Positions 480-30,629 of a DNA stretch of 33,352 bases are shown in pieces. The notes below the pieces were generated by a model. That model searched no databases, had not been told where the DNA came from, and was given only the letters and a program-made list of their open reading frames with translations. The stretch is taken from positions 64,001 to 97,352 of the forward strand of contig CANDMY010000006.1 in the NCBI GenBank assembly GCA_947385945.1, in the 5' to 3' direction. Numbering within the stretch: the stretch's first letter is position 1; each line of letters starts with the position of its first letter. The translations under genes were made by a program, and so were the position numbers. The DNA comes from an uncultured Clostridia bacterium (GTDB lineage Bacteria > Bacillota > Clostridia > Lachnospirales > Lachnospiraceae).

Positions 480-718
480 GAGCGGGGGAGTGATTCCGTT
501 CTGCTGTGACTTCGGAGGAAAGTTAGAAGCCCTTAGACTTCTGTCGATCCACTAGGATTTTTTGCCATTCCCGAATGGCAAAAAAAGGGGTGTGTTTAGC
601 CCGCTGTACAGGCGAATTGCACCCCGATCCGTCCGGCTGGATACACCGAAATTCAGAAGTCTTAGAGCTTCTTACTTTCCAGAGAGCGGAACAGCAGAAT
701 GGAATCACTCCCCCACTC
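480..718 (+). repeat. Copy 1 of a ~235-nt long imperfect-palindrome element: ~185-nt conserved core (about 507-693) inside a private outer stem; candidate structured ncRNA or hairpin-resident non-autonomous mobile element
   Basis: 5' arm gagcgggggagtgattccgttctgctg pairs with 3' arm cagcagaatggaatcactcccccactc. The core is ~90% identical to 21590-21770 and, in inverted orientation, to 18650-18850. An internal hairpin gccattcccgaatggc lies at 564-579. Confidence 0.7.
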
Positions 719-4004: not shown

Positions 4005-4069
4005 CACACATTCCCTCTCCATTTTGTTTCTATCTTATCAATCCTTTTATCCTCGGATTTCGCCCTTTT

Positions 4070-5989
4070 TTATGCATCGATTTCCGCTTCTTTAGCATGT
4101 CTGTAGATAAATTCTCTTCGAAGCGGCACATCACTTCCCATTAAAATAGAAGTTACATCCGATGCCATCTTTCCATCTTCAATCTCTACCCGCCGTAACA
4201 TTCGAGTCTCTGGATTTAAAGTAGTCTCCCAAAGCTGTGCCGCATCCATCTCTCCTAACCCTTTATATCGCTGCAAAATAAAATTTTTATGACTCTTTCG
4301 ATACTTCTCCAATGCCTTATCATCATAGAGATACTCTTCCGGTCCCCTTTGAGGTACTGCTTTATAAAGCGGCGGCATAGCAAGATAGACATGTCCCTCA
4401 TAGATTAACTCCGGCATAAACCGATAAAACAGGGTTAAAAGCAATGTACTGATATGTGCCCCATCCACATCGGCATCTGCCATAATAATAATCTTATGAT
4501 AACGCAGTTTCGAAATATCAAAATCATTTCCATACCCCTCAGAAAACCCACAGCCAAATGCCAATATCATGGTTTGAATCTCTGCATTGGCAAGTACTTT
4601 ATCCATCGTTGCTTTTTCCACATTCAATATCTTTCCCCGAATCGGCAGAATTGCCTGATAAAGCCGATTTCTAGCCATCTTTGCCGAACCGCCTGCCGAA
4701 TCCCCTTCCACAATAAAAATCTCACACTTGGAAGCATCCCGGCTTTCACAATTTGCCAATTTCCCATTGGAATCAAATGAAAACTTCGGTTTTACCAACA
4801 TATTGGTCTTTGCCTTCTCTTCCGCTTTTCGAATCTTTGCCGATTTCTCGGCACATCCAATTACATTTTTTAAAATTTCTAGATTTTTATCAAAAAATAA
4901 CTGCAATTCTTCACTGGTAATCTGCGAAGCTGCCTTTGTTGCATCTGGATTATCCAACTTGGTCTTGGTCTGCCCTTCAAACCGTGGATCGGGATGTTTA
5001 ATAGAGACCACTGCTGTCATACCGTTCCGAACATCTGCCCCGGTAAAATTTGCATCTCTCTCCTTTAAAATTCCCAGTTCCCGTGCATAATTATTAATTA
5101 CCGTTGTAAAGCTGGTCTTAAACCCGGTTAGATGCGTTCCCCCTTCTTGTGTATAAATATTATTACAGAATCCCAAAATATTTTCCTGAAAATCATTGAT
5201 ATATTGAAATGCTGCATCCACCACAATCTGTTCCGACTCCCCATGAAAAGCAATCACATCATGTATCGTCTCTTTCCCGTCATTTAAGGCACGCACAAAC
5301 CCCCGAATTCCCTCCTTTTCATGAAACACCGCCTTTTCTTCCTCTCCAGGACGTCTGTTTTCAAAATAAATCGTCAATTCTGGATTCAAATAAGCAGTTT
5401 CATGCAGCCTGCTTTTCACTGCATCCGCTTTAAAATAAATCTTATCAAAAATCTCCTCATCCGGCAAAAAATTAACCACTGTTCCCGTCTGTCTGGTCTT
5501 TCCGATAATCGGTAGCAGCCCGTCCACTAATTCTACAACTGGAACTCCTCTTTCATAGCGGTCATGGTGAATTCCGCCATCCTTAAAAACCTGTACATCC
5601 AGATAAGCCGACAGAGCATTTACCACAGAAGACCCCACTCCATGCAGTCCTCCGCTGGTCTTATAAGCCCCGTCTCCAAATTTTCCCCCTGCATGAAGTG
5701 TCGTATAGACAATTCGTGCCGCTGGAAGCCCTTTCGGATGCATATCTACAGGAACCCCACGTCCATTGTCCTTAATTGTAGCAGAACCGTCTTTCTCCAA
5801 TGTCACCCAGATCGAATCACAATATCCGTTCAAATGTTCATCCACTGCATTATCTACAATCTCATAAATCAGATGATTTAATCCCTTTACCGATACACTC
5901 CCAATATACATTCCCGGTCGTTTTCTTACCGCTTCTAACCCTTCCAACACGGTTATATTCTGTGCATTGTAAGTATCCTTCGCTCCCAC
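4070..5989 (-). CDS. parE: Type IIA topoisomerase subunit B (GyrB/ParE family); likely ParE
   Basis: N-terminus ...YNAQNITVLEGLEAVRKRPGMYIGS (GHKL ATPase), then TOPRIM and C-terminal domain. GTG start with AGGAAG SD. Immediately upstream of the A subunit. Confidence 0.8.
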   Translation of the reverse strand: MGAKDTYNAQNITVLEGLEAVRKRPGMYIGSVSVKGLNHLIYEIVDNAVDEHLNGYCDSIWVTLEKDGSATIKDNGRGVPVDMHPKGLPAARIVYTTLHAGGKFGDGAYKTSGGLHGVGSSVVNALSAYLDVQVFKDGGIHHDRYERGVPVVELVDGLLPIIGKTRQTGTVVNFLPDEEIFDKIYFKADAVKSRLHETAYLNPELTIYFENRRPGEEEKAVFHEKEGIRGFVRALNDGKETIHDVIAFHGESEQIVVDAAFQYINDFQENILGFCNNIYTQEGGTHLTGFKTSFTTVINNYARELGILKERDANFTGADVRNGMTAVVSIKHPDPRFEGQTKTKLDNPDATKAASQITSEELQLFFDKNLEILKNVIGCAEKSAKIRKAEEKAKTNMLVKPKFSFDSNGKLANCESRDASKCEIFIVEGDSAGGSAKMARNRLYQAILPIRGKILNVEKATMDKVLANAEIQTMILAFGCGFSEGYGNDFDISKLRYHKIIIMADADVDGAHISTLLLTLFYRFMPELIYEGHVYLAMPPLYKAVPQRGPEEYLYDDKALEKYRKSHKNFILQRYKGLGEMDAAQLWETTLNPETRMLRRVEIEDGKMASDVTSILMGSDVPLRREFIYRHAKEAEIDA

Positions 5990-6252: not shown

Positions 6253-6372
6253 TCAAATCGGATATTCGCAATCCGCTTCGCTGCTTGCTCATAACCTCAT
6301 CAAGGAAGTCCCAACCCACCGCTTTCGCCTTGGCGGCTTAGAAGCGGGGGACTTCCTCGATGAGGTTAAACC
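6253..6372 (+). repeat. Copy A of a modular intergenic repeat (BOX/REP-like): 5' module tcaaatcggatattcgcaatccgcttcgct(g/a)cttgctcataacctcat, then a 3' hairpin module
   Basis: Shares the 5' module with 8381-8426, 16513-16629 and 21263-21425. Shares the 3' module (caaggaagtccc ... cgccttggcggcttagaagcgggggacttcc ... gatgaggttaaa) with 16513-16629 and 21263-21425. The terminal stem aacctcatcaaggaagtccc / gggacttcctcgatgaggtt is self-complementary. Confidence 0.75.
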
Positions 6373-7178: not shown

Positions 7179-7604
7179 AATTCTTCTCCTTTCTTACGCA
7201 TATCCTAAAACAATCTCAAAATCCTCCCATAGAGTTATTGTATCACAATTTTCTAAAGAAGGAAATATTTATTACAATTTTATTTTAAATCCCTTAAAAA
7301 ATAATTGAATCATCCCCTTTCCCTAATCTTTCCAATCAATTTTTCATATAAAACTATTTCTAATAAAAAAATATTATATTTTTTATTAATATATCCTTTT
7401 TTACTATATAGCCTTAAAAAAATTATCATTTTTATTGTAACCTATCCTATTCTTTTTCTTTGTCCTGCCTACTGTCTTTGCTCATAAATCTATTCCTTTA
7501 CATAAAAATAGAACATATAGACTCGTTTTCTATATGCTCTCATACGGTGTTATTATTCCATTATGATTATGACAATATTGGTTTAAATAAACTGACATTA
7601 GATA

Positions 7605-8222
7605 CTATTTGTTATATCCAAGTTCAGTAGGCAGATTATCCCAAAGTACTGTTCTCGTCTTACTTTCTCTTAATTTTTCTAATATCTTTATATCAGGATT
7701 AGGATATACTATAAAACTATCCGATTCTCCCATTTGAGAACGAATGGGAAATGCAAGCTGTTCCTTTTCTATTGAAAACTGTGCATTTACACCGATTTTA
7801 TTTCCTCTCGCATCAAGCCTTATCCATTTTTTACAGTCTTTTATATATACGCCGTTTAATCCATGATAAATTAAGACAGGAGCTTTTTCATCATCTAAAA
7901 TTAATTTTTGATAACAAAAACCTGCCGGAACAGATTTACATCGTAATAATGCTGCCAATAAGTGAGATTTAGCAAAGCAAATTCCATGACCGGCTTTTAG
8001 CACTTCCGAAGCAGCACATGTAATGACATCTTCATTTATATCTGCTGAATGTAAAATATTATCTCTGACAAATTCATAAGTTATTTTAATGAAATCAATT
8101 TCATTACTTGCTTTCCTAAATAATTTATCAGCCAATTCTATAATATCTTCATTATCATAATCAACCACATTATCCTGTTTTAAATATTCGTCAACTTTAT
8201 TTGAATATAAAACTACATTCAT
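7605..8222 (-). CDS. Transglutaminase-like (papain-fold Cys-His-Asp) domain protein
   Basis: GHGICFAKSHLLAALLRCKSVPAGF matches the transglutaminase-like core (C nucleophile). Downstream YHGLNGVYI supplies the His and WIRLDARG the Asp. The start is moved to the internal ATG (MNVVLYS...), preceded by a GGAGGA SD. The longer track ORF begins at a GTG with no SD. Confidence 0.65.
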   Translation of the reverse strand: MNVVLYSNKVDEYLKQDNVVDYDNEDIIELADKLFRKASNEIDFIKITYEFVRDNILHSADINEDVITCAASEVLKAGHGICFAKSHLLAALLRCKSVPAGFCYQKLILDDEKAPVLIYHGLNGVYIKDCKKWIRLDARGNKIGVNAQFSIEKEQLAFPIRSQMGESDSFIVYPNPDIKILEKLRESKTRTVLWDNLPTELGYNK

Positions 8223-8380
8223 TTTTTCCTCCATAGAAGCCATTGCGAGAATAATCTTTATTTTTCTCTGGTAATGGTTCACCTTTTGCCAATCTTTAAA
8301 TAATATCTTCTATCCATTTTGTATCATACTACCTCTTTTTTTAGTATATCAAAAAAGAAGACATTCACAATTTATCAAAA

Positions 8381-8426
8381 TCAAATCGGATATTCGCAAT
8401 CCGCTTTGCTACTTGCTCATAACCTA
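8381..8426 (+). repeat. Copy B (5' module only) of the modular intergenic repeat
   Basis: tcaaatcggatattcgcaatccgctttgctacttgctcataacct matches the 5' module of the other copies. The 3' module is absent. Confidence 0.65.
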
Positions 8427-8448
8427 TACTTGTTTTTCCATTTCTATT

Positions 8449-8907
8449 CTACTTTTGTTCAGAATGACATAAAATATACATTTTTCCATTCTTATCTACT
8501 AACCTTAAATTTCTAACAAAACTCTCATCATCTGGAATTTTTATATTAAGTTTATGCCATTTCATATCAACTTCATAAATTAAATGATCAAACATAGTAG
8601 CACTCATAATAAACTGGTACGGTGTTATTCCCAAATTATTACTTACAATGATTGACATATGATTAAATATCAAATCACCAACTGACAATGTTACAGAATA
8701 TAAATCCCCCCATAATTTCCCACCAAACCCTGAAAATGAAACCTTACGATTTTGTGACTCTCCACCAAATTCTTCTTCTAACAATTCCTTTCCGCCTGTC
8801 CATATTGGAATAAAAGCACCTGTATCAAGTAAAGCAGTTAATCCCGATTGTAATAATACCATTGGTCTTTGCTGTTTTTTATCTAAATTTAATGTTATCT
8901 GTTTCAT
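8449..8907 (-). CDS. Retropepsin-like (clan AA) aspartic protease domain protein, paralog 1
   Basis: LLDTGAFIPIW contains the hydrophobic-hydrophobic-D-T-G-A active-site signature. The downstream Gly-rich segment FSGFGGKLWG resembles a retropepsin flap. About 45% identical to the 9439-9912 product. The start is set at the internal MKQITLNL, which aligns with the MKQFTLHL start of the paralog. Confidence 0.6.
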   Translation of the reverse strand: MKQITLNLDKKQQRPMVLLQSGLTALLDTGAFIPIWTGGKELLEEEFGGESQNRKVSFSGFGGKLWGDLYSVTLSVGDLIFNHMSIIVSNNLGITPYQFIMSATMFDHLIYEVDMKWHKLNIKIPDDESFVRNLRLVDKNGKMYILCHSEQK

Positions 8908-9438
8908 GATAACATCTCTATCATTCCTAATGAAAATGCATGATCGGATACGCAGCAGGTATGCTATCTTATATTTGGATAGTATGGGTATGTTTCTATG
9001 CAATATGGTAAGGCTATATACCTATGCTAGTAAACTGAAATATCTTTTTCAGGCTATATCGGTCTGCGAGTTTAACCATAACTACTTATACCATAAAATT
9101 CTTTGAATTTCTATTTCGGAGTAAATTTCCTACTTTCTATACTTCTGTTTTCATTCACTTGTAACATTACAAAAACATCATAAAATAATTCTCACTATAT
9201 CCTCAATATCATACTGTAACTCGAACTCAACGTGTCCTTTGTTTCTATTAACTATATTTGTTTAAATTTTATACAAATACACACCATTTTTTACTTCCAT
9301 TACATCATTTATTCTAGCTTGCTAATTCTGTTCTTGTAAAATATTTTTTTATCGATTCACAAATTTTATTTTTGTCTTAATCACCCCTCTTCCTCTTTTC
9401 ACACTCTCTAAAAAAGAAATGAAATCTTCATATTTCCT

Positions 9439-9912
9439 TTATTCTACCACAGTAAACTCTGAACTACACAAAACTTGCAATTGCCCACTTTTATTTCTAA
9501 TTTGTAAATTTCTAATATTACTTTCCTCATCTGGAATATCAACATTAAATTTCCAGTTCTTAGCATCTACTTCATATATTAAATGAGTAAACATAGTAGC
9601 ACTCAATATCATTTGGAAAGGTGAATTTTTTAAATCATTACAAGCAATGATATCTAACCTTGAAAAAATTAACCCTCCAATCATGATATTTTTTAACTCA
9701 TATAAATTTCCACTTGTTTTACCACCAAACCCTCCAAACGAAACACCCTTCTCTTTCAATGTTGCACCAAATCGAATCAGAATCCTTTCATCTGCTGTCC
9801 AAATAGGATAGATTGCCCCTGTATCCAACAATGCATAAATATTATTCCAATTTTTTAGCTCTACAATAGGTCTTGACTTTTCTTTAACTAAATGTAATGT
9901 AAACTGTTTCAT
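9439..9912 (-). CDS. Retropepsin-like (clan AA) aspartic protease domain protein, paralog 2
   Basis: ALLDTGAIYPIW (DTGA) plus the flap-like VSFGGFGGKTSG. A monomer of ~155 aa is consistent with a dimeric single-DTGA retropepsin. The ATG overlaps the stop of the upstream 87-aa ORF (TAATG). Confidence 0.65.
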   Translation of the reverse strand: MKQFTLHLVKEKSRPIVELKNWNNIYALLDTGAIYPIWTADERILIRFGATLKEKGVSFGGFGGKTSGNLYELKNIMIGGLIFSRLDIIACNDLKNSPFQMILSATMFTHLIYEVDAKNWKFNVDIPDEESNIRNLQIRNKSGQLQVLCSSEFTVVE

Positions 9913-10175
9913 TAAAAACCCCCCAGTACTCCTAACTGAAATACATTATCAGGTGTTGTATAAATGCCTATCAATGCACCAGAAGTTTCAAACTGCATCC
10001 AAGTTAATTCATCTTTCGATTTATTTGTATATTTCACAATAGCAGTTTTAATTGTTGCATCATTATCTTCTTCATACTCAACTTCTGTTAAACCAACCCA
10101 CTGGTTCGGGTACTTTTCTACTATTTGTTTCCAATCCAATCGCTCTTCCATTATATAAGTCCCCTTTCTTATCAA
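9912..10175 (-). CDS. Small hypothetical protein (87 aa) ending ...LGVLGGF, translationally coupled to the aspartic protease gene
   Basis: AAGGGG SD 9 nt before the ATG. The TAA stop overlaps the protease ATG. No recognisable family. A C-terminal Gly-Gly followed by one extra residue is noted. Confidence 0.5.
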   Translation of the reverse strand: MIRKGTYIMEERLDWKQIVEKYPNQWVGLTEVEYEEDNDATIKTAIVKYTNKSKDELTWMQFETSGALIGIYTTPDNVFQLGVLGGF

Positions 10176-10588
10176 ATTTTTTTCAATGATTCTTAAATTT
10201 ATCTTCTCAAAACTTATTTCTCTTTAGATTAAAATATTTGCAATATGTTCCTCCGCATTTCCATATACCGAAATTGTAATAAATATCTCCCAGTATAAGA
10301 CAAGTAACGTTTCACTTTCCTATATCCATTTATCTCATGAAACATAAACCTTCATATTTTATATACACATTACTATCTTTATAATCGTAGCGTCTACAAC
10401 AAAAAACAACAAAATCTTATATGAAAACAAATACTTTTTATATATCCTTTTAGAAACTAAATAACTCTACGATTTTGATATAATTATAGCAAAAAATAAC
10501 CCAAAATGCAATTTATTCTGATCGTCTAAACTAAAAAAGGCTTGATCATTTCTTCAAGCCTCTTTTTCTCTCTTACTTTACAGCAATC

Positions 10589-11770
10589 TTAACAGTAATA
10601 GCCCTCCAATATTGCAGTATGAACATACTGAGGGCTTAACGAATATCCACATTGACAGAAACTTTTATTCGCTATGATGTCAACAGACTCTCTTAAACCA
10701 TTCACCATACAACCTTTTACTGAATAAATATAATCTACTGCTTTTTCATTTCGGATCTGATAAGCAAGCCACCACTGTTCCTCTGATACAATTGACTCCC
10801 AATTTCCTTTCACTAAGTTACACTGTTCTACCAAATTTCCTTCTTTGTCATAAACATCCTCCCTGATTGGTTTAATTTTGGTTGCAATCTTCTTTTTTGT
10901 CATGGTATCTTCTATTTTAAACTTTCCATATAACAGATACCCCATATATTTTTCATTTCTAAGAACTCGGTTTACCTTAGATGCACTCCAACCCAAATCT
11001 CCTTTTGCTGTCAGCATCTTATGTTCAATCAAATAATTTGCAATTTTTTGAGTTCCCATACGCTTTGTTAAATCAGGATCGGTATATAAATCAAAAATTG
11101 TCTTAACAGTCAATCCATCAACTGGATCAATCCGAAAAGTATTATTCTTCCTATCCACAGCTTTTACATAAATATAACCAAATAACCCTGATACCACTAA
11201 TTGCCCTTTCTTTCTATAAGAAAGAACACCATTATTAACCCTTTTCGCCGTCCTCATTGACTCGCTCTGAGCCAATCCTCCATCAACTGACAAACGAATA
11301 ATATCTGTTTCGTCCATATTAAATGTCCAATACTTTCCATCCAGTATTAAAACTCCAATATCATATTCTTTTAACTCTTCAATTGTATTTAATAATTCAC
11401 GTAAATTCCTAGCAAATCTGCAAATATCTTGAACAATAATTAAATCGAACTCCCTTCGTCTGGCTGCTTCCAACATAAGCTGAAATGCTGTTCGATCTTC
11501 TATACTTCTTCCTGAGATACCCCTTTCTGTATATCGATGCCTTTCTTCAATTGTAAAATAAATATGCTCTTTGATCAAAGAATCTAAACGTTCCGCTTGA
11601 TTATGTAACGCCTGCAACTGATCTGGATGATTTGTAGATTCTCCGGCATATCTGGCAACTCTTAAAAGCCTATTTGTATTCAAGATATCATCAAATCTAC
11701 ACTCAAAAAAGAACTTTCTCATACTTAAAGACTCTTGTCTTTCCTTTGTATTTCTACTAAATATACTCAT
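10589..11770 (-). CDS. Serine recombinase (resolvase/invertase catalytic domain plus recombinase domain), atypical and probably degenerate
   Basis: Resolvase-like blocks LLRVARYAGESTNHPDQLQAL, YTERGISGRSIEDRTAFQLML and DLIIVQDICRFARN. The active-site box reads YAGEST instead of YARVST, so the conserved Arg is replaced. The protein is 393 aa with only a single CxC at the C-terminus and no full zinc ribbon. The ATG overlaps the stop of the upstream small ORF (TAATG). Confidence 0.6.
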   Translation of the reverse strand: MSIFSRNTKERQESLSMRKFFFECRFDDILNTNRLLRVARYAGESTNHPDQLQALHNQAERLDSLIKEHIYFTIEERHRYTERGISGRSIEDRTAFQLMLEAARRREFDLIIVQDICRFARNLRELLNTIEELKEYDIGVLILDGKYWTFNMDETDIIRLSVDGGLAQSESMRTAKRVNNGVLSYRKKGQLVVSGLFGYIYVKAVDRKNNTFRIDPVDGLTVKTIFDLYTDPDLTKRMGTQKIANYLIEHKMLTAKGDLGWSASKVNRVLRNEKYMGYLLYGKFKIEDTMTKKKIATKIKPIREDVYDKEGNLVEQCNLVKGNWESIVSEEQWWLAYQIRNEKAVDYIYSVKGCMVNGLRESVDIIANKSFCQCGYSLSPQYVHTAILEGYYC

Positions 11771-11904
11771 TATTCTTTACACTCCTTTACTAAATTTAAA
11801 GCCTGAATATAAGTATCATTATCTAAATATTTTTCCTCATACAACTTCTTCAAGAAAGCCAATATCTTAACCTTTTTTGTAACGATAGATTTTTTCTGTT
11901 CCAT
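11770..11904 (-). CDS. Small basic helical protein (44 aa), translationally coupled to the serine recombinase
   Basis: Internal ATG (MEQKKSIVTKK...) with a strong AGGAGG SD 8 nt upstream. The stop overlaps the recombinase ATG. The longer track ORF has no SD. Confidence 0.4.
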   Translation of the reverse strand: MEQKKSIVTKKVKILAFLKKLYEEKYLDNDTYIQALNLVKECKE

Positions 11905-12163
11905 ATAGTTTCCTCCTGAAAATAAGAAATGATAAGATACATTTATAAACTCAGGAAGTAACTCTATCCAAAATATCATCTAAGTTAATCTTTATATCTG
12001 ATAAAACTTACTGAACTTTAATAAACATCACTTCTATCAAATGATTTCACTTTATATATTTCATAATAATTTCATATATAAAAAGATCTCTTAAGCAGAA
12101 TGTTTCATATCATCACTCTCACTTTAGAGATCTTACATATAACTTTATATAATGTAGATACCC

Positions 12164-12490
12164 CTAACTATCTTTTGACGGATCAAAAAATGCACACTTT
12201 CCATTGACCACATCTGGAGAAAATAATCCTTCTCCACTATATTCTTTCTTTTTTATACAGGTCACTTCTCCTGCCTTACATAAAATCATTCGCTCACTCC
12301 CATAAAATGTAATTTCAGAAGTACCAACATTCTTAATTTTCAGACCTTGCAGTCCATCACTCCAATGATAAGGTTTGATCCCAAACAGCTTATCAAAATA
12401 GCGAAAATCAACTTCTCTCTTTTTCCAGTCTGTCACAAGATAAGAATCTTGAAATGTTCCCACATGAATATCAATAGGAATCTGATGCAC
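12164..12490 (-). CDS. Hypothetical protein (108 aa, GTG start)
   Basis: Open frame with GAGG 5 nt upstream of the GTG. No family recognised. Lies in AT-rich accessory DNA. Confidence 0.35.
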   Translation of the reverse strand: MHQIPIDIHVGTFQDSYLVTDWKKREVDFRYFDKLFGIKPYHWSDGLQGLKIKNVGTSEITFYGSERMILCKAGEVTCIKKKEYSGEGLFSPDVVNGKCAFFDPSKDS

Positions 12491-12966
12491 CTGACCTCGA
12501 CTATTTTTTAATCTTCCGTATTCCAGTCATTATGTGTTGATTGACTCATAATAAAATCTCCTTTGTTTTATAACTTTATCATATCATGTATACAAAGTAA
12601 TATCTATCCCATTTTATAAAAAATCTACTTAGAATCTATCTCTAAGTAGACTTTTCCAAACGGAATTTATTTCTGCTCCCTACCACTGCATACCCCTGAT
12701 AAACATGTTACAACGATATCAAACTTCTGATTGATCTATTGACTTTCTCTGTCTATGCAACATCTATATAAAAATCTTCAAAATATTCACGATATTTTTC
12801 CACTACTTTTCTTATTTCTTCATCTTTTGGCATCTCAATCTATCTCTCTTCCTTCCGATTGGGGATATATTACCTTTTATTTTACTATTTGAAAAAATAA
12901 GGCACGACAACTAGCGATAGACATATTTTAAGGCGATCAAACTAAGTATAAACCCCAAAAAAGCAA

Positions 12967-13003
12967 AAAACGACTTATTTTTTATCTAAAATAAGCCGTT
13001 TTT
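12967..13003 (-). terminator. Rho-independent terminator after prfA (bidirectional hairpin aaaacgacttatttt / aaaataagccgtttt)
   Basis: 15-bp inverted repeat with a single mismatch, flanked by A/T runs on both strands, ~70 nt past the prfA stop. Confidence 0.55.
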
Positions 13004-13074
13004 CCTGTACACCTATACATTTATACATCTATACTTTTTGCCAAACTAACAAGAATTCAGCAACAATCCGCCTT

Positions 13075-16446: not shown

Positions 16447-16512
16447 AAAAAATGCAAGTACGAATTTTGCTTTTTTAAGGGTTTTCCTTAAAAAACAAAA
16501 AAATTGCAAGAG

Positions 16513-16629
16513 TCAAATCGGATATTTGCAATCCGCTTTGCTACTTGCTCATAACCTCATAGCTGCTATCGCAGCTTCACTTTCGCCTTGGCAGCTTAGA
16601 AGCGGGGGACTTCCTTGATGAGGTTAAAC
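16513..16629 (+). repeat. Copy C of the modular intergenic repeat (5' module + gctgctatcgcagc mini-hairpin + 3' module)
   Basis: tcaaatcggatatttgcaatccgctttgctacttgctcataacctcat agctgctatcgcagct ... cgccttggcagcttagaagcgggggacttccttgatgaggttaaac. Confidence 0.75.
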
Positions 16630-16833
16630 AAAAATAAAAGAAAAATTATAAAAAAGTATTTTCTATTTATAAAAAAGTACTTTCTATTTTTGAAAATATG
16701 TTGTATAATCAATTTTATTAGAGAAGCCAGATATTGACAATGATAATTCTAAATATATCTATCAATATAAAATATGAAGTCCAAATAATCCCGTTGTACA
16801 ATTTTATAATACATGACATGGAAAGGTGAGATT

Positions 16834-18597
16834 ATGAATTACGAAGAGATGTCTTTAGTTGAATTGAGAGCAGCAGCAAAAAAAATGGGGCTGAAAGGAA
16901 CAACTGCCATGAGAAAATCAGAACTGCTCGCATTACTAATACGTGAAAAAGAAAAAATACAAGAAGAAACTATCCTATCAGAACAAAAAGCAATTTCTAA
17001 ACCAACCATCGTACCAGAACAAAATAATTCAATAGAAAATAAAACAATAATGGAACAAAAACCTATAACCGAACAAACGATAGGAATCAAACAAAAAGAA
17101 ATTTCAGAAGAAAAATCCCCTATAAAAAAAGTTTTCGTTTTGCCTAGAGAAAATGAAGGACGTACTTATTCCAACAATTACAACAGAGAAAGCAACAATT
17201 ACAATAGAGAAAACAATAACTACAAGGAAAACAGCTACAATAAAGAAAATATCACAAACAGAGAAAACGGAAACCGAGAAATAAAAGAAAATCGAGAAAA
17301 CGGCGACAGACAGCCTCGGCAATTTCAAAACGGGAATACTCAGCGGAGGATGCAAGATACCAGTAAACGCCCGAATTTTTCAGTGGAAAATCGGGACGGA
17401 TTAGTAAATGCAGGAAGAACCGAAGACGGCACTGTTATCCAGGTAAAATCACAAGAAGAATTGGCACAGTTAGACAGCGGAATTGTAGCTAGCGGAGTTC
17501 TTGAAGTTATGACAGACGGATTTGGATTTATCCGCAGTAATAACTATATGCCAGGAGATAATGATGTCTATGTATCACCGGCACAAATTCGAAAATTAAA
17601 TTTAAAAACCGGAGATATTGTGGTAGGAAATCTTCGGGTAAGAAATCAAAATGAAAAATTCGCCGCACTGCTTTATGTAAAAAGCATCAACGGCATGAAT
17701 CCAGAAGATGCAACAAAAAGACCAAATTTTGAAGAATTAACCCCTATTTTCCCAGATGAGCGGCTGCATATGGCAACGGACACCAAAAATGTTTCTATGC
17801 GGATTGTAGATATGATGTCTCCGGTCGGAAAGGGACAGCGCGGAATGATTGTAGCTCCTCCAAAAGCAGGTAAAACTACTCTCTTAAAAGAAATTGCCAA
17901 ATCAATTACTAAAAATCATCGAGATGTCTATTTAATTATTCTCTTAATTGATGAACGTCCAGAAGAAGTAACCGATATTAAAGAATCTATTGAAGGTCCA
18001 AATGTTGAAGTCGTATATTCCACATTTGACGAACTGCCGGAACATCATAAACGAGTTTCAGAGATGGTTTTAGAACGGGCAAAGCGATTAGTGGAATATA
18101 AACAAGATGTTGTAATTTTATTAGACAGCATCACTCGTCTGGCAAGGGCTTATAATTTAGTTGTTCCGCCAAGCGGAAGAACTCTTTCCGGCGGTTTAGA
18201 TCCGGCAGCACTCCATATGCCAAAGCGGTTTTTCGGTGCAGCACGAAATATGAGAGAAGGCGGCAGTCTTACGGTGTTGGCTACGGCTTTGATCGAAACG
18301 GGAAGTAAAATGGATGATGTTATTTATGAAGAATTTAAAGGAACCGGAAATATGGAATTGACACTAAATCGAAAACTGCAAGAAAAGCGGATCTTTCCGG
18401 CTATTGATATTTTAAAGTCCAGTACTAGAAGAGATGATCTGTTATTAACAGCAAAGGAGCAGGAAGCAATGGAAGTGATTCGAAAAGCGACCAGCGGGAT
18501 GCGTGCAGATGAAGCGGTAGAACAGATTATTGATATGTTCGCTAGAACTAAGGACAATGTGGAGTTTGTACAGCAGGTAAAGCGGATGCGGCTGTAA
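16834..18597 (+). CDS. rho: Transcription termination factor Rho with a long N/Y/E-rich low-complexity (prion-like) N-terminal insertion
   Basis: N-terminal [35 protein letters not shown] (Rho N-terminal helix bundle). Walker [21 protein letters not shown] loops and the C-terminal RecA-like domain are present. The insertion at residues ~100-190 contains [26 protein letters not shown]. Start moved to the ATG with a GGAAAGGTGAG SD. Confidence 0.9.
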
Positions 18598-18620
18598 ATA
18601 CGGATTTGATGGGGGAGGAC

Positions 18621-18876
18621 GCCGGGGCGGGGAAGCCATCCCTTGCCGCTGTTCCGCTCTACGGAAAGTAAGAAAGTCTAATGCCTCTGAATTTCAGTTC
18701 ATCCAACCGGACGGACCGGCACGCAATTCGCCTCTGCAGGAGGCTAAACACGTGCCTTTTTTTGTCATCAGTGATGACAAAAAATCCTGGGGAATCGACA
18801 GAGGCATAAGACTTTCTAACTTCCCTCCGAAGTCACAGCGGCAAGGGATGGCTTCCCCGCCCTGGCTGTCTCATCC
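18621..18876 (-). repeat. Copy 3 (inverted orientation) of the long imperfect-palindrome element, in its own perfect outer stem ggggaagccatcccttgccgctgt / acagcggcaagggatggcttcccc
   Basis: The core aligns to the reverse complement of copies 1 and 2, with compensatory changes. gtcatcagtgatgac at 18764-18778 replaces gccattcccgaatggc. ggcacg...cgtgcc replaces ggggtg...cacccc. The conserved single-stranded blocks caattcgcc, gctaaacac, tgaatttc and ccggacgga are retained. Confidence 0.7.
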
Positions 18877-18949
18877 TGCCTGTAGATTTATTTATTTCCT
18901 ATTTTTTTATAAAATTCAATATAAATATTTTCTTAAAGAATATGTTCTA

Positions 18950-19110
18950 TTCATTTTCTTTCATTTATGTTATTTATTTCCTTTCATTTATGTTATTTAT
19001 TTTCTTTCATTTACGTTATTTATTTTCTTTTATTTATGTTATTTATTTTCTTTCATTCATATTATCTATTTCCTCTTATTTATGTTATCTATTCTCTTTT
19101 ATTTATTTCG
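18950..19110 (+). repeat. Tandem array of ~7 direct repeats of a 23-bp T-rich unit (tttcatttatgttatttattttc), each with an ~11.5-bp sub-period
   Basis: Units read directly: tttcatttatgttatttatttcc / tttcatttatgttatttattttc / tttcatttacgttatttattttc / ttttatttatgttatttattttc / tttcattcatattatctatttcc / tcttatttatgttatctattctc / ttttatttatttcg. There are no unique spacers, so this is not a CRISPR array. Confidence 0.8.
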
Positions 19111-19240
19111 TTTATTTTTTATAAGATTCAAAAAAATTTTTTTTAAAGTTTTTCTTATTTCTTATTATAGGGTTTCTTATTATAGGGGCAAAAATACCAG
19201 CATATTTATACAATCTTTGTATAAAATTCCCACCTTGACA

Positions 19241-19292
19241 ATTAGTACAGTTATGGACTATACGATAGATAGTACAGAACTGTACTAATATA
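19241..19292 (+). promoter_or_regulatory. Candidate MarR operator: palindrome AGTACAGaaCTGTACT plus a third AGTACAG half-site, overlapping a TTGACA -35-like hexamer just upstream of marR
   Basis: ttgacaattAGTACAGttatggactatacgatagatAGTACAGaaCTGTACTaat lies ~20-70 nt upstream of the marR ATG. MarR-family dimers bind such pseudo-palindromes and commonly autoregulate. Confidence 0.4.
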
Positions 19293-19308
19293 TTTAAAGA
19301 GGTAAATT

Positions 19309-19776
19309 ATGAGAAACAACACCATTTTTATGGAACAACTAAATAAATATTACGCTATATGGCAGGAGTATAACTATGTATATGAAGAATGGGCAAAAGC
19401 ACATGGACTGTCAGTCAACAGCCTTTTCGTACTGTGTGCCATTCACGATGGTGGAGATGATTGTACACAGAAAAAAATCAGTCAAAGATGGCTAATACCA
19501 AAGCAGACAATCAATATGGTTTTAAAAGATTTTGAACGCCGAGGATTTACAGAACTGTTTCCTATGCCGGAAGATAAAAGAAATAAAATAATACGATTTA
19601 CAAAAACAGGAAAAGAATATGCCGATACTATTATTTCCGAATTGCGAAAAGTAGAACTATTTGCAGTAGAGAAAATAGGCATAGAACGGATGCAGCAGTT
19701 AAACGAAAATATGGCTTTATTTGTAGACCTTTTCAGCAAAGCAGGAGGTAAAAAAGACCATGAAACAAACTTATGA
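19309..19776 (+). CDS. MarR-family winged-helix transcriptional regulator
   Basis: 155 aa. Central wHTH segment ...TQKKISQRWLIPKQTINMVLKDFERRGFTELFPMPEDKRNKIIRFTKTGKEYAD. AGAGGTAAATT SD. The 3' end overlaps the MATE gene start. Confidence 0.75.
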   Translation: MRNNTIFMEQLNKYYAIWQEYNYVYEEWAKAHGLSVNSLFVLCAIHDGGDDCTQKKISQRWLIPKQTINMVLKDFERRGFTELFPMPEDKRNKIIRFTKTGKEYADTIISELRKVELFAVEKIGIERMQQLNENMALFVDLFSKAGGKKDHETNL

Positions 19777-21099
19777 TATAAAAACTTTCCTTCAATTCGT
19801 TATCCCATCTGTGCTGTCTTTTGCTTTATCAGGGGTTTATACGATTGTAGACGGTTTTTTTATAGGAAACAGCATAGGCGATTTAGGACTCTCAGCCGTC
19901 AATATCGCTTATCCCATTGTAGCAGTAATTCAAGCACTTGGGACAGGAATCGGAATGGGTGGTGCAATTTATTATTCCATTTGCAAAGCCGAAAAAAAAG
20001 AGGAACAGGCAAGAGAATTTACAGCCGGTGCTTTATGGATACTGATTATTTCAAGCATCCTTTTAACCATTTCTGTTTTTCTTTTAAACAGCACTCTTTT
20101 AAAATTATTAGGGGCAAGCAGCGAACTGCTTTTATTGGGAGAAGAATATATTGCCGTTATCGCCTTAGGAGCTGCCCTGCAAGTAATTGGTACAGGATTC
20201 ATTCCTTTTATCCGTAATTATGGCGGTTCCTTTTCTGCAATGGTTTCTATGATTGCAGGTTTTGTTACCAATATCATTTTTGACTACCTATTTGTATGGA
20301 TATTAGGGCGAGGCGTTGCAGGTGCAGCATGGGCTACAGTAATCGGGCAAGGTATTACCCTGCTGACTGCACTTATCTATTTATTACACAAAAAACAACT
20401 TACATTAAACATTCCTCTTTCAAAGTTTGGAAAGGTATCTGCATCCATACTTAAAATCGGAATTGCTCCATTTGGACTTACCATGTCCCCTAATCTCTCT
20501 CTTATAATTATAAACCGTTTCTCCATGTCCTATGGAGGAGAATCGGCAATTGCTGTCTATGCTTGTATTTCCTATGTCATTTGCATTGTCTATTTAATAC
20601 TGCAGGGAGTAGGTGATGGAAGTCAACCGTTACTCAGTCAGCACTACGGTGAAAAAAATTTTGATAAACTAAAAAACACAAGAAATTTCGCTTATCGATT
20701 TGCCATGTTCCTCTCCTTTATTGGCTGCATCATTATGTATTTAACAAGAAAAGAGCTCGGCGTATTATTCGGAGCATCAAATGAAGTAAATAAAGAAATT
20801 GCAAAAATAATGCCCATCTTTTTGTTTTCCGTACCCTTTGTTGCAATTCTCCGTATCACAACAGCGAGTTTTTATGCCACAGAAAAAATACCTTTTCCTA
20901 TATTTTGACTTTTATTGAACCATTGCTTATGTTAATACTTATGCTTATACTACCGCCTCTATTTGGCGGGCAGATAATGATCTGGTGGAGTACCGTTTTA
21001 GCAAGGATTTTCTCGGCATTATTAGCTATTATCCTAAAAACCCATACAGACAAAAAGCCCTTATCAAATAATACAATATTAGAATACAAAAATGAATAA
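19760..21099 (+). pseudogene. MATE-family multidrug efflux transporter with an apparent frameshift near 20880-20910 (or an uncorrected sequencing error)
   Basis: The 382-aa ORF (19760-20908) has polytopic MATE-like helices but stops after ~10 TMs. A 64-aa ORF in another frame (20905-21099, MTFIEPLLMLILMLILPPLFGGQIMIWWSTVLARIF...) looks like the missing hydrophobic C-terminus. An A7 homopolymer sits at ~20882-20890, just before the frame change. Confidence 0.55.
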
Positions 21100-21107
21100 A
21101 AATATCA

Positions 21108-21425
21108 AAGAAAATTCGGCATCCGCTCCACTACTTCCTTATAATCCTATGCTGCTATCGCAACTTGTCAGATAGGGCTTGCACCCCACCTGACACAAGG
21201 AACTCCCCCAACCCACCACCTTCGCCTTCACGGCTTAGAAGCAGCAAACTTCCTTGATAGGGTCAAATCGGATATTCGCAATCCGCTTCGCTACTTGCTC
21301 ATAACCTCATAACTGCTATCGCAGCCTTTCAGTGGGAGTCTGCACTCCCACTGAAACAAGGAAGTCCCAGCCCGCCGCTTTCGCCTTGGCGGCTTAGAAG
21401 CGGGGACTTCCTTGATGAGGTTAAA
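21108..21425 (+). repeat. Copies D and E of the modular intergenic repeat, in tandem; D is a divergent variant, E is full-length with an extra inserted hairpin (cagtgggagtctgcactcccactg)
   Basis: D: ...atccgctccactacttccttataatcctatgctgctatcgcaac...cgccttcacggcttagaagcagcaaacttccttgatagggtc. E: tcaaatcggatattcgcaatccgcttcgctacttgctcataacctcataactgctatcgcagc...cgccttggcggcttagaagcggggacttccttgatgaggttaaaa. Confidence 0.75.
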
Positions 21426-21561
21426 AAACCAGTAAAAATTTCCACAAACCAAAAATAAATCAAAACCTAACAAAAACTCCAAAAACCTAAAGAAAAACAA
21501 AAAAACAACTCTCAAAATCCCAAAAGGAAAGCCATCATTAAGTAAATTAAGCGAAAAAGCA

Positions 21562-21795
21562 GCCAGAGTGCGGTATGGCGGCGATGTGACTTCGGAAGAA
21601 AGTTAGAAGCTCTTAAACTTCTGTCGATCCACTAGGATTTTTTGCCATTCTCGAATGGCAAAAAAAGGGGTGTGTTTAGCCCGCTGTACGGGCGAATTGC
21701 ACCCCGTTCCGTCCGGTTGGATGCATCTATATTCAGAAGTTTTAGAGCTTCTTACTTTCTGTAGAGCGGAACATCGCTGCCATACCACACTCTGG
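21562..21795 (+). repeat. Copy 2 of the long imperfect-palindrome element, with private outer stem gccagagtgcggtatggcggcgatg / catcgctgccataccacactctggc
   Basis: The core (about 21587-21770) is ~90% identical to copy 1. The outer 25-bp arms are unrelated in sequence to those of copies 1 and 3, yet mutually complementary (one mismatch, one G:U). Confidence 0.7.
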
Positions 21796-21852
21796 CGTCC
21801 TCCCCCAAAAATTATCTATCCCCCTTAAAATAAAGAATATTCGCAAAACCTA

Positions 21853-30310: not shown

Positions 30311-30368
30311 CTCCCCGAGTAGGGCTCGAACCTACAACCCCACGGTTAACAGCCGTGTGCTCTACCAT
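30311..30368 (-). tRNA. 3' portion (~58 nt: D-loop remnant, anticodon arm with GTT, variable loop, T-arm, 3' acceptor strand) of a tRNA-Asn(GTT) gene; no 5' acceptor or D stem, so not a functional tRNA
   Basis: Minus strand reads ...tcaatggtagagcaCACGGCTGTTAACCGTGgggttGTAGGTTCGAGCCCTACTCGGGGAg. It has an anticodon stem CACGG/CCGTG with loop CTGTTAA, a T-arm GTAGG-TTCGAGC-CCTAC and a 3' acceptor strand. The expected 5' partner TCCCCGAGT...GCTC is absent; an unrelated hairpin (tacggtatgtaaccgta) lies there instead. Confidence 0.7.
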
Positions 30369-30629
30369 TGATACGGTTACATACCGTAAATCTCTTTGAT
30401 AGAGTGTCATGCTCCAAATTACAATCGAGGGTATCTTATCATTTCTCGTGGCTACTAGCGAACTGATAACCTAACGAAGATTATGTTATCATATCTTTTT
30501 TCATTTGGCAAGAGGTAAATTATCGTTTTTTAAACTTTTTTTATATCATTTCCTCTTATACGACTATACGTATAAGTTAAATACCGGCTTATGTCTTAAT
30601 TGGTAAAGCCCTCGGTCAGCCACCCTTTA

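Follow-up and report, generated by a model that had tools for sequence, protein, structure and literature searches.

Copies of the repeat and their setting

The DNA analysed here is a stretch of 33,352 nt ("the window") from contig CANDMY010000006.1 of an uncultured Lachnospiraceae bacterium (assembly GCA_947385945.1), and it contains five copies of a repeat with a canonical length of 163 nt. The repeat is a folded, multi-copy, lineage-specific insert that has fixed asymmetric termini and decays by internal deletion. We consider it to represent, probably, a family of short, non-coding, non-autonomous, interspersed and structure-dependent repeats of the Lachnospiraceae, which is related through a single module to the Clostridiales-1 RNA motif (RF01699). 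The family is new, with no Rfam family matched at threshold, while its kind, that of structured interspersed repeats, is known.

Copy A is located past the terminator of an HD-domain gene (6430-6394) and upstream of a gyrB-like gene; copy B lies in an AT-rich block, copy C between rpmE and rho, and D and E have an antisense orientation to their neighbours, a MATE gene and a malic-enzyme gene. The contexts named in the initial annotation (HD-domain gene, MATE, rpmE/rho and AT-rich block) are correct. The copies and the parts of copy E, all on the minus strand, are as follows; scores are those of a covariance model, R1, built from 15 public copies together with window copies D and E.

6253..6372, minus strand: copy A, in which P3 and P4 are deleted (118.2 bits, match 6253-6370)
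8381..8428, minus strand: copy B, tail only (the stem-3-like module alone), in the AT-rich block (40.7 bits)
16513..16629, minus strand: copy C, with an internal deletion of the 3' strand of P2 and of P3 (70.6 bits, match 16513-16628)
21103..21262, minus strand: copy D, full-length, older and diverged, arranged head-to-tail with E (85.5 bits)
21263..21425, minus strand: copy E, full-length and canonical (163 nt), a four-way junction of P1-P4 with a conserved tail (166.9 bits, model positions 1-163)
21270..21306, minus strand: conserved tail of E, in RNA sense GGUUAUGAGCAAGUAGCGAAGCGGAUUGCGAAUAUCC, a module resembling stem 3 of Clostridiales-1
21303..21310, minus strand: P1 arm of E, aacctcat, with its partner atgaggtt at 21415-21422
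21313..21324, minus strand: P4 mini-hairpin of E (ctgctatcgcag), helix 7
21327..21356, minus strand: P3 variable hairpin of E, helix 5, with another sequence and the same fold in D
21357..21414, minus strand: P2 long hairpin of E (caaggaagtccc ... ggggacttccttg) with an inner hairpin, helices 2-4

With filters off, R1 gave five significant matches in the window, all on the same strand, and nothing else scored above about 24 bits. Copies had been annotated at these five places before. A 39-nt core (TCGGATATTCGCAATCCGCTTCGCTACTTGCTCATAACC) accounts for four of them at two or fewer mismatches, in a scan that allowed up to three, with 0.00 matches expected from 100 dinucleotide shuffles; the divergent copy D is recovered by R1. 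The core of copy B is one position off the consensus. Both halves of the repeat were also found by a repeat finder (families D3, D4 and D7). Among the other loci compared, which are labelled by L-numbers, those designated L026, L046, L029, L011 and L002 carry copies that are 95-96% identical to copy E. The presence of copy D was correctly noted in the initial annotation, whereas its limits (21108-21268) have to be revised to those given by R1, and D and E do not simply abut but overlap in the hexamer GTCAAA (21262-21267).

Secondary structure and covariation

It is the complement of the window's plus strand that folds. For copy E on the minus strand, the minimum free energy is -82.1 kcal/mol (z = -7.8), copy D reaches -59.5 kcal/mol on the minus strand versus -31.9 kcal/mol on the plus strand, and the minus strand is the more stable one in 39 of 43 non-identical public copies (p = 7e-8). 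In the structural alignment, read on the folded strand, G-U pairs outnumber A-C pairs by 57 to 13.

On this strand the canonical element is ordered 5'-TTTAAC, P1, P2, P3, P4, tail (AUGAGCAAGUAGCGAAGCGGAUUGCGAAUAUCCGCUUGAC)-3'. P1 (AACCnnAU paired with AUnnGGUU) encloses the three hairpins P2, P3 and P4, of which P2 (CAAGnAAGUCCCC ... GGGGACUUnCUUG) is the long one and contains an inner hairpin, and the conserved tail of about 40 nt is positioned 3' of this four-way junction. All the modules that had been recognised from the letters alone are present, namely a 5' module, a mini-hairpin (gctgctatcgcagc), a variable hairpin, which differs in sequence between D and E and forms a hairpin in both, and a 3' module that pairs back onto the 5' module (aacctcat/atgaggtt). 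Their naming, however, refers to the wrong strand: because it is the complement of the strand written there that folds, what was called the "5' module" is, on the folded strand, the tail at the 3' end.

The fold is supported by covariation. In a structural alignment of 17 diverse copies, 95.8% of the cells assigned to pairs are indeed paired, compared to 86.1±0.6% in shuffles, and double (compensatory) changes are seen at 25 of 58 pairs versus 13.3±1.9 in shuffled alignments, a value that none of 500 shuffles reached. When, as a control, the partners were slid by 1-3 columns, only 6-9 pairs with double changes were left. Within P1 covariation is restricted to the inner pairs, where it is seen over lineages (CTCAT, CGAAT, CAAAT, CGAGT) with 10 and 7 double changes at two of them. 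In P2 (helices 2-4), 92-97% of cells are paired and 8 pairs have double changes; P3 (helix 5) has them at 10 of 13 pairs, and P4 (helix 7), with 100% of cells paired, at 2 of 4. No covariation was detected in the tail in the same alignment. The initial annotation had proposed that the copies be examined for their predicted folding, and one strand does fold, as a four-way junction plus tail. No reading frame within the element is open across lineages.

The tail itself may adopt either of two folds, one resembling stem 3 of Clostridiales-1 or a simple hairpin GCGGAU/AUCCGC. The 5' strand of the first helix of the module (GGUUAU) overlaps the 3' strand of the outer part of P1, and the simple hairpin competes for the 3' strand of the module.

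Relationship of the tail to Clostridiales-1 RNA

The closest relative of the repeat is the Clostridiales-1 RNA motif, judged "probably RNA" by its discoverers (Weinberg 2010, PMC2864571). The likeness to BOX and REP elements proposed in the initial annotation applies to the kind of repeat but not to the family. In a permissive scan, the RF01699 model finds the best canonical copy (L035:5599-5761, of the Blautia type) with 22.5 bits (E = 0.005, threshold 48) and in the tail only; for D and E there was no RF01699 match at E ≤ 10. We compared the repeat with the published Clostridiales-1 alignment (Weinberg 2010, PMC2864571). Stem 3 of Clostridiales-1 consists of a 6-bp helix, GA/GA, a 4-bp helix, a GUA/GGA internal loop and an apical hairpin, and the tail has the same layout: helix a is followed by a GA/GA loop, then come helix b (GCAA/UUGC) and a GUA/GGA loop, with GC-GAA-GC as the cap. 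The parse is the same in nine Clostridiales-1 sequences and four copies of the new repeat. Helix b covaries across the families, with GAAA/UUUC, GGAA/UUCC, GGAU/AUCC, GCAU/AUGC and AGAA/UUCU set against GCAA/UUGC in the new repeat, and within the latter family one copy has a compensatory GUAA/UUAC. Long strings are also common to both (AUGAG.AAGUAGC ... GCGGAUU.CGAAU). By this comparison, stem 3 of Clostridiales-1 and the tail of the repeat are one and the same RNA module.

Clostridiales-1 resembles the repeat further in that it is found in Lachnospiraceae and the gut, is multi-copy (more than a dozen copies from NZ_ABOU02 contigs are in the published alignment), measures about 165 nt and has four stems with covariation. 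There are also differences. The Clostridiales-1 junction, closed by P1 (UGAUACC/GGUAUCA), has the module as one of its internal stems, while in the new repeat the module is located outside, at the 3' end, with its apical hairpin cut down to GC-GAA-GC. The other three stems have no sequence similarity and cannot be aligned, and the TTTAAC/TTGAC terminal motifs are missing from the flanks of Clostridiales-1. As loci L075 (about 4740-4925, plus strand) and L116 (minus strand, about 3825-4020) carry Clostridiales-1-like RNAs as well as the repeat, both families coexist as separate elements in one genome; these RNAs were assigned by a signature regular expression and not by Rfam score. Our literature search found no later functional work on Clostridiales-1.

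This relationship brings up an alternative explanation, according to which the repeat is a functional family of small or cis-acting RNAs, a sister of Clostridiales-1, with paralogues that are under selection at the RNA level (for example for protein binding via the tandem-GA and GUA-GGA loops) and with mobility incidental or absent. The strong covariation and the excess of G-U pairs on one strand would be expected of such a family, and the non-Watson-Crick GA/GA and GUA/GGA loops, typical of RNA tertiary and protein-binding motifs, occur in the very module that is common to Clostridiales-1. Several results described below point in the other direction, and we regard this explanation as unlikely.

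Distribution

A 24-nt pattern from the core was found in at least 120 8-kb stretches of public species-representative genomes, nearly all from Lachnospiraceae. They include Blautia (several species), "Ruminococcus" spp., Fusicatenibacter, Jingyaoa, Lacrimispora, Hespellia, Faecalicatena, Mediterraneibacter, Anaerotaenia, Hominisplanchenecus, Eubacterium ramulus, Roseburia hominis and Hungatella, as well as many metagenome-assembled genomes from the gut of mouse, human and ruminants; the few bins with labels other than Lachnospiraceae among the listed matches are "cleanbin" metagenome-assembled genomes. With R1, 134 copies were identified in the first 100 listed loci and 31 in the other 20 loci and four viral contigs (165 in total). 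Among the matches listed, single assemblies have at least 8-11 separate loci (10 in one case and 11 in another). Seven contigs of Eubacterium sp. MSJ-13 terminate inside a copy, and a copy number high enough to break assemblies is not what would be expected if each copy were a functional RNA.

The core sequence was in no paper found by literature search, and among the papers found none describes a REP or a MITE (miniature transposable element with inverted repeats) of Lachnospiraceae. The initial annotation considered that the motif might prove to be derived from a tRNA or from the terminus of an insertion sequence (IS). Neither is the case: Rfam and tRNA scans gave no tRNA or tmRNA, and no Rfam family at threshold, for the whole element, and no IS or transposase is attached to the copies. 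Elsewhere in the window, a marginal match to the tRNA model is present at 30319-30373 on the minus strand (29.7 bits versus a threshold of 29, model positions 8-63 only), which was not confirmed by ARAGORN and may be a fragment.

Termini, size variants and arrays

The ends of the repeat are sharply defined, with information content dropping to background right outside GTCAA(A)G and GGTTAAA (plus strand of the window). On the folded strand the termini are asymmetric, 5'-TTTAAC ... TTGAC-3', with the hexamer TTTAAC always at the 5' side. There are no terminal inverted repeats conserved across lineages, as the only similarity of the ends, seen in one lineage (7 of 11 positions), does not recur in others, and 62 flank pairs showed no target-site duplication, the flanks being random. 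A classical MITE moved by a DDE transposase would likewise be small, non-coding, multi-copy and intergenic; lacking both conserved terminal inverted repeats and target-site duplications, the repeat can hardly be one.

The copies form two main size classes, full (about 160 nt) and minimal (40-50 nt), besides which there are intermediates and some longer ones that have extra hairpins. The forms seen are full, without P3 and P4, minimal (about 48 nt), tail-only, with extra inserted hairpins, and head-to-tail arrays. This diversity, over at least 120 loci, bears out the initial impression of a modular intergenic family of the BOX/REP type with gain and loss of modules. All copies of the deletion series retain both termini, and the minimal form, in which helix a of the module is missing, is what a deletion between two GCAAGT repeats would leave. 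We infer from the sequences that the short forms are internal-deletion derivatives in which hairpins were lost between short direct repeats (GCAAGT ... GCAAGT), and that the apparent gain and loss of modules would mostly represent such deletions. Decayed copies, whether tail-only, with half a helix deleted as in copy C, or minimal without helix a, argue against an RNA family maintained by selection.

The same applies to the arrays. Head-to-tail arrangements occur in the window (D/E) and in loci L109, L057 and L023, with neighbouring copies sharing one GTYAAA hexamer.

Insertions relative to close relatives

Copies C, D and E are kept in all strains of the window species that were compared (98-100% identity), a stability that would also suit a functional RNA. 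In the 6.2 kb and 6.0 kb that were compared, identity to one of these assemblies, GCA_026338065.1, is 100%, and its contig ends inside copy E.

The situation differs in other species, designated here by identity of the gyrB-like protein (95% for the sister species, 92% and 87% for two further relatives; about 58 kb examined in all). Neither a repeat copy nor a TwoAYGGAY element (see below) is present in 22 kb of the sister species that are syntenic to the region of A and C, and no repeat copy is found around the same gene in 14 kb of the 92% relative or 22 kb of the 87% relative. The intergenic region between the HD-domain and gyrB-like genes exists in the 95% and 92% relatives, without copy A. 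In 80 metagenomic relatives there is no copy within 1.5 kb of rpmE. A further case involves two related Lachnospiraceae, where locus L057 is filled by a minimal and a full copy in tandem and the syntenic L083 is empty. As the syntenic regions of relatives are without copies, the copies are lineage-specific insertions. The comparison of orthologous regions proposed in the initial annotation has thus revealed sites without copies, but not the target duplications that were also sought. Empty orthologous sites in close relatives, next to five copies within 33 kb here, are difficult to reconcile with an RNA family in which mobility is incidental or absent.

Copy A is the only one of the five that was simply inserted into an intergenic region conserved in other respects. 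Copies C, D and E are found where the window (16477-21844) is rearranged relative to the sister species (L215, 3225-5100). There, rho together with its promoter is inverted, and copy C sits in the 191-nt novel junction of this inversion on the rpmE side. At the other rho junction, before the malic-enzyme gene, a 3.25-kb block has been inserted which comprises ORF178, a MarR gene, the MATE gene and copies D and E, and which, like a composite unit, has a TwoAYGGAY copy on either side, the two being in opposite orientation. Copy B is in a 5.7-kb AT-rich block (about 7286-13029, GC about 0.30) that is absent from the sister species.

These regions have several further features. The AT-rich block encodes a 393-aa serine recombinase (10589-11770) with Resolvase and Recombinase domains, and contains two segments (8566-8742 and 9565-9744) that are paralogues and are related to a 73-aa ORF of which the sister species has a single copy. 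Just upstream of rho are two tandem 21-nt repeats (TTATAAAAAAGTAYTTTCTAT, 16646-16687), the first unit being in the novel junction beside copy C and the second in sequence common to the sister species. A frameshift splits the MATE gene of the window (19760-21099) into 19760-20908 and 20905-21099; the gene is likewise split by a frameshift in two other strains and is intact in strain L128 (446 aa). An AT-rich tandem array of about nine units with a period of 23 nt (9 + 14 spacing) occupies 18925-19141, inside a 178-aa ORF (18752-19288) without Pfam match; it may be the source of gap differences of 48-55 nt between strains over 13.1-19.4 kb.

Association with TwoAYGGAY RNA

The long palindrome that the initial annotation reported next to the repeat is the TwoAYGGAY RNA (RF01731). 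With 61.4, 71.6 and 69.6 bits, its three copies are above the threshold of 43 bits; they were detected by Rfam scans of sub-windows, all three having been missed by a run over the whole window at the gathering threshold.

510-687, plus strand: TwoAYGGAY match, within a repeat (454-726) that measures about 270 nt and has a long closing stem
18656-18831, minus strand: TwoAYGGAY match, within a second such repeat (18617-18888)
21591-21766, plus strand: TwoAYGGAY match, within a third such repeat (21553-21807)

Beyond the two copies that bracket the 3.25-kb block, the third is an insertion, relative to the sister species, downstream of a gene for a periplasmic binding protein. TwoAYGGAY resembles the new repeat in being multi-copy, strongly folded, present in gut Clostridia and absent from the sister species; in sequence and fold the two are unrelated. 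The adjacency to copy E stands, with the distance corrected from 137 nt to 128 nt, as the repeat unit begins at about 21553 and the Rfam match at 21591. The two share intergenic regions here, but not as a rule: TwoAYGGAY occurs in 4 of the 120 listed loci, directly adjoining the repeat in the window and in L026, and for this reason an obligatory link was rejected.

Orientation and gene context

The copies occupy intergenic sites that are unrelated to one another, and the genes around them are ordinary ones. Gene calls around the copies were crude, being based on long ORFs only. In gaps between co-directional genes of the listed loci, the folded strand is in sense orientation in 37 cases and antisense in 12, a bias of 3:1 that would be in line with a functional RNA. 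Sense copies are a median of about 50 nt from the upstream stop codon and about 110 nt from the next start codon. Convergent and divergent intergenic regions of the listed loci are used equally (14 versus 15); this, the antisense position of D and E to their neighbours and the fact that the element has no consistent promoter or terminator inside speak against an RNA gene or cis-acting RNA. A second bias concerns the strand of the chromosome: as the GC skew of the plus strand of the window is -0.24, the folded strand of all five copies is on the G-rich strand. On that strand the tail of every copy contains GAAGCGG (for example 21282-21288, minus strand), a heptamer that has been reported as Chi in Staphylococcus aureus (the Chi of Bacillus subtilis being AGCGG); in Lachnospiraceae this may be no more than a curiosity.

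The loops typical of RNA and the sense bias point to an additional existence, and perhaps a role, of inserted copies as RNA. Quite possibly, most of them are read through in sense with their neighbours and exist as folded RNA, with potential local effects on transcript ends or transcript stability, although we hold this with less than even confidence. The decayed copies and the arrays speak against the idea that every copy is a functional RNA gene.

Search for a mobilising gene

An associated transposase, which the initial annotation suggested might be encoded elsewhere in the genome, was not found in about 1-1.3 Mb of loci. When the 2,280 ORFs of the 120 listed loci were clustered, only housekeeping families emerged (ABC, AraC, MatE, response regulators and others). 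There is no transposase between inverted copies, and neither tnpA nor tnpB adjoins any of about 170 copies. A tblastn search of the loci for Y1 TnpA/RayT, using IS200 TnpA and E. coli RayT sequences as queries, returned nothing credible; as this covered the loci only, a single-copy gene could easily be missed. Separately, a TnpB-like gene (Cas12f1-like_TNB, weak) was noticed at 13743-14078 of L219, at the end of the locus from the 92% relative, in which the 14 kb examined are without a copy.

Comparison with BOX, REP and IS200/IS605-derived elements

Pneumococcal BOX elements have the structure boxA-boxB(n)-boxC, with conserved end modules that pair, optional inner ones, an intergenic location and stable RNA folds, and they are not known to have a transposase. 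The new repeat resembles them in its modular build, pairing end modules, optional internal modules, intergenic position and stable folds. It differs in that BOX varies by repetition of boxB and the repeat mainly by deletion of different hairpins, with occasional extra ones; BOX, moreover, is not known to have a conserved module outside the closing stem or a sequence relationship to the repeat. Hosts and composition are different too, and what the two have in common is the modular principle.

The tail also has features of a repetitive extragenic palindromic (REP) sequence. On the folded strand it reads GTAG-CG-AAGCGGAT-TGCGAAT-ATCCGCTT-GAC, the tetranucleotide being GTAG in 87 and GCAG in 22 of 111 copies. 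The layout of GTAG-1/2 REPs has been described (Di Nocera 2013, PMC3733652), and the rule for REPs calls for GTAG or GTGG at 0-2 nt 5' of a fully paired stem of 7-20 bp with a loop of 2-5 nt, or of a long hairpin with bulges (Quentin 2018, PMC6006769). One might propose that a REP-associated tyrosine transposase (RAYT) mobilises the tail as a GTAG-tagged REP, and that the junction is an accessory module as in bacterial interspersed mosaic elements (BIMEs). The position of GTAG 2 nt from an 8-bp stem, and the conserved trinucleotide on the far side, agree with both publications. The loop (TGCGAAT) is 7 nt instead of 2-5 nt, however, and GTAG is internal rather than terminal, being preceded by at least 8 conserved nt plus the junction. 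Copies occur singly or head-to-tail, whereas REP, BIME and REPIN typically form inverted dimers. No RAYT was seen in the loci, and Clostridia do not figure in the sparse distribution listed for the RAYT subclasses (Quentin 2018, PMC6006769). In the homologous modules of Clostridiales-1, a 20-nt hairpin is situated between GUAGC and GCGGA, so that the REP-like stem cannot form, and GUA is thereby identified as an element of an internal loop and not a tag. This further weakens the proposal, which we consider very improbable. At a more general level, the repeat shares with REP, BIME and REPIN sequences a high copy number, extragenic hairpins, G-T/G-U pairs and the lack of terminal inverted repeats and target-site duplications (Bertels & Rainey 2011, PMC3116915), as well as a GTAG-like motif beside a stem, a frequent position near gene 3' ends and a movement that is thought to be single-stranded. 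Unlike them, it is far larger and multi-helical, is found in Firmicutes and is not depleted from divergent intergenic regions.

Gene-less derivatives of IS200/IS605 elements (PATEs) and the omega RNAs of TnpB provide a third comparison, with asymmetric ends, no terminal inverted repeats or target-site duplications, a sub-terminal hairpin, a fixed short sequence at the other side, a strand bias and an RNA-like part abutting a variable flank. On this basis the repeat could be a PATE-type derivative with an omega-RNA scaffold for TnpB, in which TTTAAC would be the target (TAM), the tail the right end and the 3' flank the guide. The 3' end of a copy, TTTGAC, resembles the hexamer, which would explain arrays sharing GTYAAA, and the placement of the folded strand of all five copies on the G-rich strand, the lagging-strand template, is as in IS608 and ISDra2 (Quentin 2018, PMC6006769). 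Against this, we found no parent IS, and no tnpA or tnpB accompanies the copies; no reading frame enters the element as the 3' end of tnpB would; and the left end is without a hairpin resembling that of the right end. Rfam families of the IS605 and omega type do not match. The one usable empty site, in L083, has GTGAGA and not GTTAAA at the expected place, in a region that is only about 87% identical and too diverged to show whether the hexamer was there beforehand, and Clostridiales-1 copies bear the module without TTTAAC/TTGAC ends. We therefore rate this explanation as improbable.

Proposed mode of spread

Of the explanations considered, we favour that of a non-autonomous, structure-dependent interspersed repeat. 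Such an element would spread by insertion of a folded single-stranded intermediate, and a trans-acting factor encoded elsewhere would recognise the stem-3-like module together with the termini 5'-TTTAAC ... TTGAC-3'. By analogy with IS200/IS605 elements, their gene-less derivatives and REPs, the most coherent specific mechanism would be hairpin-dependent single-strand transposition of the HUH/Y1 type, as summarised by Quentin (2018, PMC6006769). It fits best with the lack of terminal inverted repeats and target-site duplications, the sub-terminal hairpin, the fixed 5' hexamer and the strand bias, and the resemblance of this hexamer to the 3' end would explain the head-to-tail arrays. Because no enzyme was found, we put this mechanism forward as a tentative possibility only.

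Several observations weigh against spread as a mobile repeat or against this mechanism. That all strains keep C, D and E gives no sign of ongoing movement at these sites. The repeat is absent from plasmids (no match in 72,556) and nearly absent from viral collections, with 4 matches among 2.9 million viral contigs and 9 weak matches in unannotated faecal "phage" contigs. Since flanks have diverged, empty sites, including that of copy A in the sister species, cannot be aligned to the base, and the absence of target-site duplications thus rests on the flanks of filled sites. The near-invariance of the tail across genera is partly due to ascertainment, as the pattern used to scan genomes was in the tail; copy D and several secondary matches have diverged tails. 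A regression on GC skew over 98 loci was uninformative (intercept 0.03), so that replication and transcription biases are inseparable. The ends of IS200/IS605 elements usually carry similar hairpins on both sides, and the repeat has an invariant hairpin at only one. To these is added the failure to find a credible Y1 TnpA/RayT in the loci.

Biological implications

The repeat is a third abundant structured repeat of the Lachnospiraceae, beside Clostridiales-1 and TwoAYGGAY, both of which have been unexplained since 2010. Its hosts, such as Blautia, Fusicatenibacter and Roseburia, are dominant commensals of the human gut. In the window, the repeat and TwoAYGGAY are both located at junctions that differ from the sister species, those of the rho inversion and of the MarR-MATE insertion. 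In practice, short-read assemblies are broken at the repeat, and spurious ORFs across it are to be expected from gene callers.

The non-Watson-Crick module that is common to the repeat and Clostridiales-1 is a concrete target in the search for the protein that binds or moves them. In a more speculative scenario, to which we attach little probability, this module would be the handle of an unrecognised mobilisation system in Lachnospiraceae that is guided by nucleic acid or by structure; both families would then be gene-less, guide-RNA-like carriers, similar to PATEs and omega RNAs, that are served in trans by a pair of HUH transposase and TnpB type or by another enzyme. If that were true, each of hundreds of copies would express a structured RNA that ends in its own locus-specific 3' flank.

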